Sequence record: PQ471515.1
Source: Escherichia phage Turkey3
Length of the DNA: 64,000 nt
Direction: 5' to 3' (one strand)
The notes beneath the pieces were generated by a model. It was not told the DNA's origin, did no database searches, and was given only the letters and a program-made list of their open reading frames with translations. Of this stretch, positions 45,204 through 60,240 are shown one piece after another (position 1 is the stretch's first letter; every line of letters starts with the position of its first letter). A program made the position numbers and the translations under genes.

Positions 45204-45267
45204 AATTCCCTCCTTTATTCTTTATACTATATTTAATCAAAAAGAAAAGCCAGTACTCTGTACTGGC
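45204..45267 (-). promoter_or_regulatory. conserved cassette module: terminator hairpin GCCAGTAC-TCT-GTACTGGC + TATAGTATAA box + AAGGAGG
   Basis: near-identical copies at 46624-46686, 47433-47496, 48637-48700, 56542-56605, 57791-57854, 58971-59035, 60193-60230. Confidence 0.6.
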
Positions 45268-45273
45268 ACTATA

Positions 45274-46623
45274 TTACAACAAATGTATTTCTGTGAGTGT
45301 TTGATATGTTACACCGTTGTACACACCTCTCCAATATACCTTACCTTCAGTACTAACCACTAATAATCCATATGTTGTAAACCCAAGAGTACCACCAACA
45401 TACATAGCATCTTTGATTTTAATACCAATGTCTTCATATGTAAATGAAGCGACTGCTCCCGCTTGCCATGAAGGACTAGCATAGTAATCACTATAAACAC
45501 CATGTGCTTTATATATTGATGTTGTTCCGGGTTCAAAAATTACAGTTCCACAGTAGTTCATTCGTATTTTGGTACTGGATGAAGTTGGTACATTTATACC
45601 TACATCATCTTTAATCCCTGTAGTTAGGACGTTAAAACCACCCGCTACACGGTTGACGTCATCCGCACCGATTAGAAACATACCAACGTTGTAGCCCATA
45701 TAATACACACTACTTGTACCATTCCAGAAAGAAAAACCACCACCATTACCACAGCGATATAGTTGTGAATTTGAGCAGTACATCATGCCTTCGTTTGTTG
45801 CATCAAAATCATCTGCTGTTCCGATTACAGCCACTGTAGTCCACGTTTTAATCACTTGGTTTGCACTAGCTGGTTTTTGTATACCATATCGTATATTATA
45901 TCCCTTACCTACGATTGTACCATCTTCTAATTTGGCATAAAGTACAGGTCTATTACCAACAAAATACACATTATTATGTGACATGTCTATTGTGCATCTT
46001 AATGAAACTGCTTTTTGTGTCAATTGATTATCTTTAGTAAAAGAAGTAAAGTAGTAATCTGATGTGGAGTTGTTTATTAAACCTTGAATCGACAAACCCA
46101 TATACCAGATTTCACCATTAGTGTTCAATGCTGCCAAAATACAACTATATTTTGAAGTGTATGCTGGGGTTAATGATGTTGCTGGACCTTTATCATATCC
46201 ACCACAGAATACCATTTCCACAACTTCACCTACGTTAGAAAAATAAGAAGATACATTTATAAAACCATTTGTTATAAAAGGTGCTGTAGTTATACTTGAA
46301 TGTGTGAATATTCCATTTGCATATACACCACAAAAATGATATGAACCATCATTATCTTTAACTATTATTCCATTTGATAGTAGCCAAAAATTGTTTACAT
46401 TTTTTCGTACTAATTCAATTCCTGTACCATTGGTTGGTGTTATACCAAAAGAAACATATTTTGTTTGACCAATACCATATAAATTTCCATTTGATGCTAA
46501 TATTGCACCAAACCAATTACCACCACCATTCCTATCATGACCCATACCAATGGAGTCGAATTTCTTCACAGTAGAGGCTTCAACTTTATTTCCGTACTTA
46601 ATCATTCTCGCAAAAGGTAACAT
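45274..46623 (-). CDS. MLPF-family protein, beta-propeller-like (largest member)
   Basis: ORF track runs to 46659, but MIKYSIMNKGGN is the translated promoter/RBS; true start MLPFARMIKYGN at 46623. Confidence 0.75.
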   Translation of the reverse strand: MLPFARMIKYGNKVEASTVKKFDSIGMGHDRNGGGNWFGAILASNGNLYGIGQTKYVSFGITPTNGTGIELVRKNVNNFWLLSNGIIVKDNDGSYHFCGVYANGIFTHSSITTAPFITNGFINVSSYFSNVGEVVEMVFCGGYDKGPATSLTPAYTSKYSCILAALNTNGEIWYMGLSIQGLINNSTSDYYFTSFTKDNQLTQKAVSLRCTIDMSHNNVYFVGNRPVLYAKLEDGTIVGKGYNIRYGIQKPASANQVIKTWTTVAVIGTADDFDATNEGMMYCSNSQLYRCGNGGGFSFWNGTSSVYYMGYNVGMFLIGADDVNRVAGGFNVLTTGIKDDVGINVPTSSSTKIRMNYCGTVIFEPGTTSIYKAHGVYSDYYASPSWQAGAVASFTYEDIGIKIKDAMYVGGTLGFTTYGLLVVSTEGKVYWRGVYNGVTYQTLTEIHLL

Positions 46624-46694
46624 ATTTCCTCCTTTATTCATTATACTATATTTAATCAAAAAGAAAAACCAGCACTCAAGTACTGTCCTATATT

Positions 46695-57860: not shown

Positions 57861-58970
57861 TTACTTGGGTAATGGAATTGTGGTCCATCTATTTGCGGCA
57901 ACGTCACCTGGTACATATGTAGGACTACCACTTACAGCAATAGTTTCATTACCATCATATACAACACTGAAGTTTGTGCACGTATACAACGCTGCGGCAT
58001 CTGGATTGTAATTTTCAAGTGTTAGTGTATTGGTGAACAAATTCAATGCAGTAGTTGAGCCGTTTTTACCATATGCACCTGTAGTATATATCTTTCCTTC
58101 TGTTGTTGAGTACATATTAACATATGACCCAGATGATGATTTAGCAATTTTATCTATCTTGCTATCTATTGTTTTAGAGTTAAATTGAAATGGATATACC
58201 TGTACGTTAGTATCTAAACCATTTCCCAGTTCCCCATTTAACTGCCACCCTGTGTGGTACATTCCCGCATTTGTATATGCAAGCGTACTATACGCATTAC
58301 CACCCATTATTTTAGTGCCAGATAATTTTAAACCAAACGATGTCCACTTACCAGTTTCATTTCCTATGGAACCATAAGCACTTGTACCACACGCACGAAG
58401 CTCGCCATTTGACGTTAGAAGCACTGTATTATTAACGTTACCAAATATATCAATAACCTGATTAGTGCCATTATTCAGTACTGAAGTAAAAGTACTCTGT
58501 GAGTAAGTACTACCTGAACCAACAGAACCATTTGTGTTCATACCTCTTCCATATACAATTTTACCATCAGCACTAACATAGTGCATTGAATCAAAACCAA
58601 TGGATATCATTTTAATATCAGATATATCTGGAAATGAAGAAGTTACATCTACTCCACCTAGTGGAATTGTATTATTTCCTAAACCTAATGAGACATTAGT
58701 TCCGTGCATTATAAATTTATCTTCTTTAAAATATAAAATATTATATCCACCAGCCCATGCATTATTAACGCCATTTGTAATCAGTACCCATTTATTTTGT
58801 GTAGTAGTTCCAGTAATATTTAACTGTTGATAGTTATTGATTCCACAACCATATAGCGATCCATCACCATATAGTACATATAAATTATCATATCCTGCAA
58901 TAACTTTCTTTATTTTTTTGGGTACAGGTGCTACATTCCCATACTTTAACATTCTTCCAAAAGGTAACAT
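57861..58970 (-). CDS. MLPF-family protein, beta-propeller-like (close paralog of 48715-49824)
   Basis: MLPFGRMLKYGN...DNLYVLYGDGSLYGCG. Confidence 0.8.
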   Translation of the reverse strand: MLPFGRMLKYGNVAPVPKKIKKVIAGYDNLYVLYGDGSLYGCGINNYQQLNITGTTTQNKWVLITNGVNNAWAGGYNILYFKEDKFIMHGTNVSLGLGNNTIPLGGVDVTSSFPDISDIKMISIGFDSMHYVSADGKIVYGRGMNTNGSVGSGSTYSQSTFTSVLNNGTNQVIDIFGNVNNTVLLTSNGELRACGTSAYGSIGNETGKWTSFGLKLSGTKIMGGNAYSTLAYTNAGMYHTGWQLNGELGNGLDTNVQVYPFQFNSKTIDSKIDKIAKSSSGSYVNMYSTTEGKIYTTGAYGKNGSTTALNLFTNTLTLENYNPDAAALYTCTNFSVVYDGNETIAVSGSPTYVPGDVAANRWTTIPLPK

Positions 58971-59043
58971 TATTTTCTCCTTTATTCATTATACTATATT
59001 TAATACAAAAAGAAATGCCAGTACACAGTACTGGCATATTAAT

Positions 59044-60192
59044 TCATTGTATAAATGACATATCTACTTCTGTATAATTAAGAACGTTCTGTCCAGAAAT
59101 ACCACCCATTACTACTATTGCAAGGCCACAATAATATAATTTTCCAGTATCCGTAAGTATAAGTGATCCAGATGGACTGCGTACCAAATCACACGAACTA
59201 TTAAAAGAAGTATAAGAAGGAGTATAGGAGTACTGATTATTATTATTACCAACACCTAATTGCCCAAACCCATTCGTTCCAGAAGCATATAGAACTTCAT
59301 CTGCTTTGACAATATGTGATGCCATGTTACCAACACAAGTATATAGAGTATAAACTCCTGAACTCAATAATGTCGGAGTTTTATATTGTATATCTGTAGA
59401 TGTAGAAGTACCACCTGTACCAAATTCGTTCCCATATTGTGCACCGAACTGTTTACCACAAGCGTACAAATTATTATCCGATTTGATAAAAAATGTACTC
59501 TGATAACTTACATTAAAATCTATAACATCCGAAGAAATCATCGTCACCCCAGTAATAGAAGTTTGATTACCCGTGCCCAACTGATAGTAATAGTTAAAAC
59601 CACAACCCCATAAAGTATTATCTTCTTTTAGGTATATGTTACCAACTGCCTTTTTAACCGAAGTTATAGTATCTATCCTTTTGAATGTGTTAAAAGAATT
59701 AATGTTTGTACCATCACCAAATGATGATAGGTTCGAGTTATTGTTCGCTCCACAACAATACAATGTACCATCGTTTGTTATCAAATTTACCTTCATATCA
59801 TAAAAACTACTCATGTACTTTATATCAGAAACATTAATACCACCTGATGTTATCCACGTGGTACAGTCCGTCCACAAAGTTTTTCTATCAGTTACACCAG
59901 TGAATGCCTTCGTGTTACCAGTGATAAAAACTTTTCCAGTACCTTTCTCTTCATACAATTGACAATCACTACTGTTATCTTCCAATAGAACTCGTTTAAC
60001 ATTCTCCGCACAAAGAATAAATTTACTCGATGCTACACCTGTACCAGTACCCCAATTCGTCGCAGAAGATGCATACAACTTATCAGTATAAGTATCATGA
60101 AGATACATAGAATCACTGGAATATATTTTAAAACGCCCTTCTTTCTCAGGTATAATATTCCCATAATCAAACATTCTAACAAAAGGTAACAT
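59044..60192 (-). CDS. MLPF-family protein, beta-propeller-like
   Basis: ORF track to 60210 (MNKGGN is translated RBS); true start MLPFVRMFDYGN at 60192; YACGKQFGAQYGNEFGTGGT. Confidence 0.75.
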   Translation of the reverse strand: MLPFVRMFDYGNIIPEKEGRFKIYSSDSMYLHDTYTDKLYASSATNWGTGTGVASSKFILCAENVKRVLLEDNSSDCQLYEEKGTGKVFITGNTKAFTGVTDRKTLWTDCTTWITSGGINVSDIKYMSSFYDMKVNLITNDGTLYCCGANNNSNLSSFGDGTNINSFNTFKRIDTITSVKKAVGNIYLKEDNTLWGCGFNYYYQLGTGNQTSITGVTMISSDVIDFNVSYQSTFFIKSDNNLYACGKQFGAQYGNEFGTGGTSTSTDIQYKTPTLLSSGVYTLYTCVGNMASHIVKADEVLYASGTNGFGQLGVGNNNNQYSYTPSYTSFNSSCDLVRSPSGSLILTDTGKLYYCGLAIVVMGGISGQNVLNYTEVDMSFIQ

Positions 60193-60240
60193 ATTCCCTC
60201 CTTTATTCATTATATCATATTTACCCCAAAAAGAAAACCC

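Follow-up and report, generated by a model that had tools for sequence, protein, structure and literature searches.

The locus considered here is an array of tandem genes in Escherichia phage Turkey3 (sequence record PQ471515.1), and the question that it raises is what is done by the block of ~70 nucleotides (nt) that recurs between these genes. The window, i.e. the whole stretch of 64,000 nt that was analysed, belongs to a 121Q/PBECO4-type jumbo coliphage (Asteriusvirus, 'Rak2-like') and combines low G+C content with strong AAAGGAGG Shine-Dalgarno (SD) sites. The array codes for a family of paralogous proteins, here called MLPF proteins, which begin with the same 12-residue peptide and have bodies that are only 14–24% identical. 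Based on the observations described below, the blocks are probably composite cassettes of a terminator, a late promoter and a ribosome-binding site (RBS), and these cassettes would double as sites of exchange.

Organization of the array

The array consists of 17 genes on the minus strand (Table 1). In a megablast search, every match to the segment at 45204–60230 was to a jumbo myophage of Escherichia or Salmonella from the 121Q/PBECO4/slurp01 group, at 85–99% identity and in many separate pieces, and the flanks of this segment show the same pattern of matches. A Gram-positive phage, to which the AAAGGAGG sites and the low G+C content had pointed at first, was rejected on these matches. The initial annotation started the array at 45204; it reaches 5 kb further left, for a length of ~20 kb.

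Five of the 17 genes have no block. They lie 9–15 nt behind their upstream neighbour, with an SD site only, and are translationally close-coupled to it. Three of the block-less genes are in pairs inside the range first annotated, and the triplet at 41775–45203 falls outside it. Nine genes sit in linked groups, rather than the seven first reported, and the array resolves into ~12 predicted transcription units, of which 8 are single genes, 3 are pairs and 1 is a triplet. The claim that each gene is a self-contained cassette is overstated, as only 12 of the 17 have a promoter core.

Anatomy of the intergenic blocks

The hairpin of the block has the form GCCAGTAC-N3-GTACTGGC, with 8 matches in the window at up to two mismatches against 0.01 expected. 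Six of these fall between array genes in the range 45204–60230, one (41750) follows gene 16 and one (5305) is off the array. The 32-nt promoter block, TTGATTAAATATAGTATAATGAATAAAGGAGG, has seven matches at up to three mismatches, including four exact ones, where 0 are expected, and every match is on the minus strand. The core TAAATA-N3-TATAAT is present in 12 exact copies, 11 of which are in the array; all are on the minus strand, 16–21 nt upstream of a minus-strand start codon. The full order of hairpin, T-run, core, SD site and ATG is seen in eleven intergenic spacers of 70–78 nt, in agreement with the anatomy of terminator, promoter and RBS proposed initially. The elements of the proposed block, from hairpin to ATG, are all present, except that the gap between GGAGG and ATG is 4–5 nt and not 7.

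Two types of block can be distinguished. Type A consists of GCCAGTAC-N3/5-GTACTGGC followed by TTGATTAAATATAGTATAATGAATAAAGGAGG, and type B of ACCAGTACTGAAATAYGTACTGGT, a T-run, GTAAATACWWTATAAT and GGAGA. Upstream of the promoter of the last array gene, a plus-strand gene (41092–41742) intervenes. The same core also precedes a gene outside the MLPF family, 5331–6488, whose product is 75% identical to the virion protein gp077 of phAPEC6. The promoter of the first array gene stands back to back, or overlaps, with a predicted near-consensus sigma70 promoter on the plus strand (TTGACA-17-TACAAT, 60241–60269), which would serve the plus-strand region of small open reading frames (ORFs) and has CCAGTACTG in its spacer.

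Cassette exchange among related phages

The arrays of the window, phAPEC6, EJP2, fEgEco12, UE-S1 and CMSTMSU were compared, with protein bodies grouped at an amino acid (aa) identity of at least 80%. CMSTMSU was used in the DNA comparison only, due to frameshifted genes in its assembly, and a 16-17-16-17 cassette duplication in phAPEC6 was left out since it spans the record origin and may be an assembly artefact. Both the order and the content of the cassettes differ across the six arrays, which contain 9–17 genes. The order is 1,10,11,7,2,3,12,19,20,4,13,5,21,22,23,14,15 in the window, 1,10,2,3,7,6,35,9,8,5,4,13,36,14,15 in fEgEco12, 1,2,3,6,9,5,8,37,38 in UE-S1, and 12,6,28,1,2,3,7 and onward in EJP2.

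Breakpoints between the arrays cluster at the start of the genes. Thirty-one of 37 internal ends of blastn high-scoring segment pairs (HSPs) fall in the intervals from -80 to +45 nt around the start codons, which together make up 10.4% of the array (p=5e-25), and the remaining six are at most 6 nt from it; this test is partly circular, as alignments extend into shared repeats, and to that extent the case for exchange at the blocks is weakened. Independent evidence comes from the reordering and the junction alignments. Behind cassette 3, the sequences of the window, fEgEco12 and UE-S1 are near-identical (1–3 substitutions) through hairpin, promoter, SD site and ATG; at +13 or +37 of the coding sequence they part, and each continues into a cassette of its own. 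At the nucleotide level, junctions diverge at +13, at +37 or at the ATG. From its ATG on, cassette 7 of the window shares 97% identity with its counterpart in fEgEco12, yet one of the two follows a type A block and the other a type B block. Depending on the phage, the same body (97–99% aa identity) is preceded by different modules, which share 72% nt identity. Tight junctions have also swapped their downstream partner.

Block identity is 0.86 within phAPEC6 and 0.82 within EJP2, as opposed to 0.67 between the two, and both N-terminal variants and block types are partly genome-specific. Identical residues share the same codon in 77% of cases in codons 1–12, compared to 45% elsewhere. Taken together, these comparisons place the exchange in the repeated stretch of promoter, RBS and first 36 coding nt. 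This bears out, by the six-array comparison, the breakpoints and the junction alignments, the initial proposal that the flanks and the first 36 nt are substrates for exchange. Such exchange would explain why the so-called chromosome condensation genes are where 121Q/PBECO4-type phages vary most. The authors of the fEgEco12 study noted this annotation on two proteins that were among the most divergent when two isolates of one species were compared, and offered no mechanism.

Integron-like cassettes were also considered. They were rejected on anatomy, without a search for an integrase gene: the hairpins of 19–28 nt are far below the size of attC, each cassette has its own promoter, and the crossovers are in the 5' coding region.

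Conservation in other genera

The same design is present in Salmonella phage 7t3 and Erwinia phage Hallingskeid. Here the peptide is MIPFARI/MxxYGN, and the module consists of a GGCCAGTAC...GTACTGGCC hairpin, a T-run and AATTAAATATAGTATAAT. The average nucleotide identity of 7t3 to the phage group of the window is ~29% (PMC13070987). The block is therefore maintained by long-term selection rather than left over from duplication. The blocks are not described in the papers on phAPEC6, CBB, fEgEco12, UE-S1, Sharanji, EJP2 and PA5oct. In the UE-S1 record (ON568341), two blocks, each including ~40 nt from the start of the gene, are tagged 'repeat_region' (13998–14101 and 19656–19760), and 'terminator' features are placed on the hairpins on the wrong (+) strand; the UE-S1 paper is silent on the blocks.

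The array proteins and their shared peptide

The first 12 codons of the array genes are conserved, with M1, L2, P3, F4, G11 and N12 invariant and R6 and Y10 nearly so. Most of the proteins are RCC1-like propellers according to Pfam, and two (49834 and 50798) are Kelch-type. One Gly-rich protein (46695) is not assigned to a family, and one has no Pfam match and only a weak hit to a PHROG RCC1 family. The peptide MLPFxRMxxYGN is common to the RCC1-like, Kelch-type, Gly-rich and unassigned bodies. An AlphaFold2 (AF2) model (predicted template modelling score 0.83) forms a seven-bladed RCC1-like propeller, closest to UVR8, RPGR, HERC2 and RCC1. In this model residues 1–24, including the peptide, lie outside the propeller, with a predicted local distance difference test score of ~50 versus ~90 for the body. 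The idea that the peptide is the closing ('velcro') strand of the propeller was rejected on this placement and on the presence of the peptide on non-RCC1 bodies.

Virion mass spectrometry of phAPEC6 detected eight RCC1-like array proteins in addition to gp077 (PMC7247149), and the RCC1-like gp1 of GAP32 is likewise a virion protein (PMC5259590). The 12-residue peptide is probably an address or anchor for incorporation into the virion. No consistent L/I-x-E protease motif was seen after it by eye. Tandem RCC1-like homologues also occur in the rV5-like Escherichia phage A5-4 (Vequintavirinae; 1468–4161), with 36% identity to a window protein from residue 13. These begin with MLEM(L/M)NL(G/S) (rV5-like: MLEMLNLG) and have no MLPF, which suggests that the same propeller family carries lineage-specific N-terminal address peptides.

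Promoter class

The perfect TATAAT without a -35 element that was noted initially is confirmed. The hexamer 17 bp upstream is CTTTTC, TTTCTT or similar, with at best two of six matches to the consensus, and at 16–18 bp upstream of TATAAT there is neither a -35-like hexamer nor a TGn extension. A -35 element in the 3' arm of the hairpin was considered and rejected, as the CTGGCA-TATAGT pair at 16–17 nt matches only three of six positions of the consensus. A scan for sigma70-like sites gave 77, fewer than the 100.5 found in shuffles.

What the blocks have in common with the rest of the phage regulon is the conserved element TAAATA rather than TATAAT. Across 250 kb of phAPEC6, 27 genes outside the array whose products are proven virion proteins by mass spectrometry carry wTAAATA 17–58 nt upstream of the ATG, among them the genes for the major capsid protein, scaffold, portal neighbour, sheath and baseplate, and a TATA-like stretch usually lies 4 nt downstream of these boxes. 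In the window, TAAATA is upstream of 10 of 16 minus-strand genes versus 4 of 75 plus-strand genes (p=9e-7), and one of these four corresponds in position and in size (127 aa) to the virion protein gp037c. The gene at 25148–26659, which was missed by the crude gene call, has a perfect TATAAATA upstream and is the positional counterpart of the phAPEC6 virion protein gp035c. Plus-strand genes use near-consensus TTGACW-N17-TATAAT promoters. At 25089–25147, an early-type hairpin (GGGTTGACTTCGGTCAACC and a T-run) is fused to a perfect late box TATAAATA, the gp035c gene has the same hairpin and box, and a similar hairpin followed by GTAAATA is found at 26672.

In T4, late promoters have no -35 and comprise one TATA box at -10 and an A/T-rich segment downstream of it; they are read by gp55 (PMC2988020). 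The full array 8-mer (ATTAAATA or GTAAATA) matches TATAAATA at six of eight positions with an invariant TAAATA core, and the segment downstream of the box is A/T-rich (TAGTATAATGAATAAA or CATTATAATTATT). By geometry, a start ~7 nt after TATAAT would hit the SD site, and one 6–7 nt after TAAATA would give a leader of ~25 nt. For the Rak2-like phages, the authors of the CBB and GAP32 work predict three promoter classes, i.e. RpoD-like early, TGAAACG plus -10, and ATAAATA late, and a gp55-like sigma factor is reported in related phages (PMC5259590). In phAPEC6, gp237c, encoded outside the region corresponding to the window, matches phrog_234 'late sigma transcription factor' of the gp55 family (E=8e-18).

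The initial annotation had offered either a phage-specific factor, namely the sigma factor at 11263, or a late mode. The late mode is favoured because TAAATA is found upstream of proven virion genes, the box is T4-like, the phage group encodes a gp55-like sigma factor and homologues of the products are in the virion; the sigma factor at 11263 becomes the weaker candidate. We infer that the promoter of the blocks is late-type and most likely read by host RNA polymerase with the gp55-like sigma factor.

The hairpin

The hairpins have stems of 7–10 bp, loops of 3–8 nt and folding energies (dG) of -7 to -16 kcal/mol, with folding z-scores of -4 to -5 in 9 of 11. The 10 nt after the hairpin contain 7–9 T on the sense side, compared to 4–6 on the antisense side, and a scan found 22 terminator-like sites where 8.8 are expected. 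Stem, short loop and sense-side T-run together have the structure of an intrinsic (Rho-independent) terminator, and hairpin and U-run are plausibly predicted to act as one. Recurrent GTGCTGG variants allow G.U pairing in the sense RNA only, as at 50767–50791 (-16.0 sense versus -6.3 antisense). No known RNA family was found in 39000–61000 by Rfam at gathering thresholds.

The 8-bp palindrome CAGTACTG is the commonest 8-mer of the window, with 43 copies versus ~1 expected, and AGTACT has 178 copies versus ~22. Sites of CAGTACTG are in both coding and intergenic DNA (e.g. 1238, 14641, 29818, 49143, 56596 and 60253), and no orientation bias relative to transcription was found. The word is also enriched across 250 kb of phAPEC6 and in Hallingskeid, and is absent from one rV5-like locus. 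Several early promoters hold it just ahead of the -10 (CAGTACTGTATAATG).

Proposed mechanism and alternatives

In the proposed mechanism, the CCAGTAC-based hairpin and U-run would end the upstream unit. Directly next to it would stand a -35-less late-type promoter, TAAATA and, 3 nt on, the A/T-rich TATAAT initiation region, and this core would be read by the gp55-like late sigma factor on host RNA polymerase. A strong SD site and the start codon would complete the cassette. The blocks would in this way divide the 17-gene array into ~12 separately started and stopped late units, with virion-associated beta-propellers carrying the common peptide as their products. Cassettes that are otherwise unrelated are almost the same in promoter, RBS and first 36 coding nt, and these parts would thus serve as portable homology, at which the phage recombination machinery would swap, reorder, insert and delete cassettes.

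Several observations speak against this reading. In the array TAAATA is preceded by T or G, as opposed to A (19), C (6), G (2) and T (0) in the 27 boxes elsewhere, and the TATA stretch is at N3 in the array and commonly at N4 in the other late boxes; given these differences the array core could be a separate promoter class. Homologues of gp33 and gp45 were not found in the related phage CBB (PMC5259590), so the late machinery may work unlike that of T4. The literature searched holds no transcript data for any phage of the genus. Overall folding energy was tried as proof of an RNA hairpin and dropped, as it does not differ between sense and antisense (p=0.40; 59 modules from five phages), which leaves only the G.U-only variants as informative. 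Finally, the stem word CAGTAC/CAGTACTG is 40–60x over-represented genome-wide, and the hairpin may for this reason have another or an additional role.

The core might instead be read by RNA polymerase with the sigma70-family protein at 11263–12228, which would recognize TATAAT, perhaps with TAAATA as an extension, and would make the array middle or delayed-early. Pfam finds regions 2 and 3 in this protein and no region 4 even at E<=1, so a -35 would be dispensable, and there is a precedent in gp36 of phiEco32, which lacks region 4 and reads tAATGTAtA single-element promoters with no -35 (PMC8948821). The perfect TATAAT at a fixed distance of 3 nt, kept even in other genera, and the departure of the array core from the general late box in preceding base and TATA spacing are also in its favour. 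This alternative nevertheless seems somewhat unlikely: TAAATA is the element common to proven virion genes, the array products are themselves virion proteins, transcription would start on the SD site, and the class proposed in CBB that is neither host-type nor late has a different motif, TGAAACG plus -10 (PMC5259590). It is quite improbable that host sigma70 reads TATAAT directly, with expression of the array as soon as infection begins. Although 10 of 12 cores have a perfect -10 hexamer and an A/T-rich T-run lies upstream, a -35 and a TGn are both missing, the region at -40 to -60 holds a G+C-rich hairpin in place of an UP element, and the products are virion proteins. Furthermore, the early genes of the window carry near-consensus TTGACW-N17-TATAAT promoters, i.e. 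the phage builds proper sigma70 promoters where needed.

The hairpin could be mainly a protein-recognition or recombination site based on the CAGTAC/CAGTACTG word, with termination secondary. The stem sequence itself, and not just its pairing, is kept across genera (CCAGTAC...GTACTGG), the word CAGTACTG is the most abundant of its length in the window and recurs in the spacer of several early promoters, and for comparable elements of T4-like phages Arbiol et al. considered that exchange might be site-specific (PMC2839356). We consider this unlikely, as the mapped crossovers are in the SD site, the ATG and the first 36 nt and not in the hairpin, and tight junctions that have no hairpin exchanged their downstream partner as well; the T-run is on the sense side only, and the G.U-only variants favour an RNA hairpin. 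That the repeats are functionless leftovers of recent tandem duplication is hardly credible, even though the genes are tandem paralogues. The divergence of the bodies next to five blocks identical over 32 nt already contradicts it, the block is kept in phages of other genera, and blocks and bodies have different histories.

Coordinates of the features

Table 1. Array genes, junctions, intergenic modules and related elements in the window. Assignments of promoters and terminators are predictions; dG in kcal/mol; SD, Shine-Dalgarno site; z, folding z-score.
Feature	Position	Strand	Details
Array, 17 MLPF genes	39890–60192	-	ORFs and translations
Array genes 1–6	59044–60192, 57861–58970, 56612–57790, 55348–56541, 54217–55338, 52962–54143	-	
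Array genes 7–12	51756–52886, 50798–51745, 49834–50724, 48715–49824, 47503–48636, 46695–47432	-	
Array genes 13–17	45274–46623, 44085–45203, 42927–44072, 41775–42911, 39890–41014	-	
Promoter of first array gene	60193–60260	-	core 60209–60223 TAAATATGATATAAT; SD; without CCAGTAC terminator hairpin
Module, type A	58971–59043	-	hairpin 59015–59037 ATGCCAGTAC-TGT-GTACTGGCAT, dG -14.4; T-run; core 58988–59002 TAAATATAGTATAAT; SD; ATG 58970
Module, type A	57791–57860	-	hairpin 57836–57854, dG -10.0; T-run; core 57808–57822; SD; ATG 57790
Module, type A	56542–56611	-	hairpin 56585–56607, dG -14.4; T-run; core 56559–56573; SD; ATG 56541
Tight junction	55339–55347	-	9 nt, SD only
Module, type B	54144–54216	-	hairpin 54188–54209 CAGTACTG-AAATAT-GTACTGG, dG -8.1; T-run; core 54164–54178 TAAATACTATATAAT; GGAGA; ATG 54143
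Module, type B	52887–52961	-	hairpin 52930–52957, dG -13.7; T7; core 52908–52922 TAAATACATTATAAT; GGAGA; ATG 52886
Tight junction	51746–51755	-	10 nt
Module, mixed type	50725–50797	-	hairpin 50767–50791 GCTCAGTACTG-AATAA-GTGCTGGGC, dG -16.0; T6; core 50743–50757; GGAGAG; ATG 50724
Tight junction	49825–49833	-	9 nt
Module, type A	48637–48714	-	hairpin 48682–48700, dG -10.0; T-run; core 48654–48668; SD; ATG 48636
Module, type A	47433–47502	-	hairpin 47478–47496, dG -12.4; T-run; core 47450–47464; SD; ATG 47432
Module, type A, degenerate hairpin	46624–46694	-	hairpin 46670–46685 CAGTAC-TTGA-GTGCTG, dG -6.9, z -1.8 (weak); T-run; core 46640–46654; SD; ATG 46623
Module, type A	45204–45273	-	hairpin 45249–45267, dG -12.4; T-run; core 45221–45235 TAAATATAGTATAAA, one mismatch; SD; ATG 45203
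Tight junction	44073–44084	-	12 nt
Tight junction	42912–42926	-	15 nt
Terminator-only hairpin closing the triplet 44085–45203/42927–44072/41775–42911	41750–41768	-	GCCAGTAC-TAT-GTACTGGC then TTTTCTTTT; dG -12.4
Promoter of last array gene	41015–41050	-	core 41031–41045 TAAATAAAGTATAAC; GGAGA; ATG 41014; no upstream hairpin
Terminator-like hairpin after last gene	~39855–39889	-	ATCCAGTAC-TATTAT-AGTACTGGAT then T6; read from sequence
Same core upstream of non-MLPF gene 5331–6488	6489–6530	-	core 6511–6525 TAAATACATTATAAT
Sigma70-family protein (candidate of the initial annotation)	11263–12228	+	regions 2 and 3; early-type region
Early-type hairpin/promoter elements	12239, 20717, 24311, 25091, 26672, 27354, 31651, 32374, 33758, 36518	+	

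Comparison with known systems

The closest known elements are the PeSLs (promoter-early stem-loops) of T4-like phages (PMC2839356, PMC4122927). In both cases a stem-loop terminator lies just upstream of a promoter, followed by an SD site and a start codon. Both occur as many near-identical copies in a hyperplastic region (here 11 exact cores in a 20-kb array whose content varies in six phages), in both the ends of indels, replacements and displacements fall at the elements (here 31 of 37 HSP ends and the junction alignments), and homologous recombination between copies is the mechanism proposed for both. In PeSLs, mini-circles arise when neighbouring elements recombine. However, PeSLs use early sigma70-like promoters with -35 and -10 ~17 bp apart, and the published variant PmSL uses a middle-mode Mot box, whereas the array blocks have late-type TAAATA and no -35. 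The array is also in a Rak2-like jumbo phage and not in the T4 subfamily, its blocks flank one family of virion paralogues rather than unrelated ORFans, and its homology runs 36 nt into the coding sequence.

A second composite family is present on the plus strand of the window, with the form GGGTTGAC-TTCG-GTCAGCCC-TTTTTGC-TATAAT and 10 copies versus 0.06 expected. These early-type elements share with the array blocks a terminator fused to a promoter. They differ in their sigma70 consensus, with the -35 TTGACT in the arm and loop of the hairpin and the T-run in the spacer, and in their location among small early-type ORFs, and they come closer than the array blocks to the classical sigma70 definition of PeSLs. 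Two identical copies, at 32374 and 36518, bound a 4.4-kb segment (32112–36512) that fEgEco12 lacks and for which no match could be detected in phAPEC6 or UE-S1. Its ORFs are at 32446–33744, 34043–35458 and 35409–36506, and Pfam is uninformative for them. Across the plus-strand gene region, 6 of 24 HSP ends are at most 60 nt from an early-type element (3% of the region; p=7e-5).

With T4 late promoters (PMC2988020) and the ATAAATA motif of CBB and GAP32 (PMC5259590), the array promoter shares a single A/T box without a -35, an A/T-rich segment downstream, a position upstream of virion genes and a gp55-like sigma factor encoded by the phage group. It differs from the T4 late promoter in its box, ATTAAATA or GTAAATA, in the fixed, perfect TATAAT 3 nt downstream and in its fusion to a predicted terminator.

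The internal protein (IP) loci of T-even phages offer a further parallel, as described by Repoila et al. (1994) in the accounts given in PMC2839356 and PMC4122927. According to these accounts, the IP genes are likewise polymorphic, their products are packaged in the virion, all members carry a short conserved N-terminal peptide (the capsid targeting sequence), and the locus has PeSL-like flanking repeats proposed to confine shuffling to it. The array differs in the size of the locus (~20 kb, 9–17 genes) and in having no consistent protease cleavage motif after the peptide, which in the IP system the prohead protease removes at a consensus site from proteins located inside the head. By the same accounts, IPs are small basic proteins and their elements are based on T4 early promoters, as opposed to beta-propellers of 27–50 kDa and a late-type promoter in the array.

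The PeSL idea, that of a regulatory cassette as a recombination handle, would with these blocks be extended to Rak2-like jumbo phages, to late promoters and to a family of virion proteins. The 15-nt signature TAAATA-N3-TATAAT should be useful for annotating virion genes in poorly annotated 350-kb genomes, the peptide is a candidate 12-residue tag (MLPFARMVKYGN) for loading foreign proteins into jumbo-phage particles, and the blocks may be natural landing sites for engineering. A broader interpretation is possible, and is offered tentatively: the array may be a plug-in system for virion cargo or adhesins, in which a portable label (terminator, late promoter, RBS and the 36-nt address-peptide tag) is used to install and trade beta-propellers (RCC1-like, Kelch and other) among Rak2-like phages. 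It would then be a 20-kb analogue of the T4 IP loci run by a late-promoter form of PeSL, and the CCAGTAC hairpin would be part of a wider CAGTACTG signal recognized by a phage protein. In relation to the PeSLs themselves, the array blocks are best described as a variant rather than a member of the class, as they share its composite anatomy, its clustering and its breakpoints but neither its sigma70 promoter nor its phage group.

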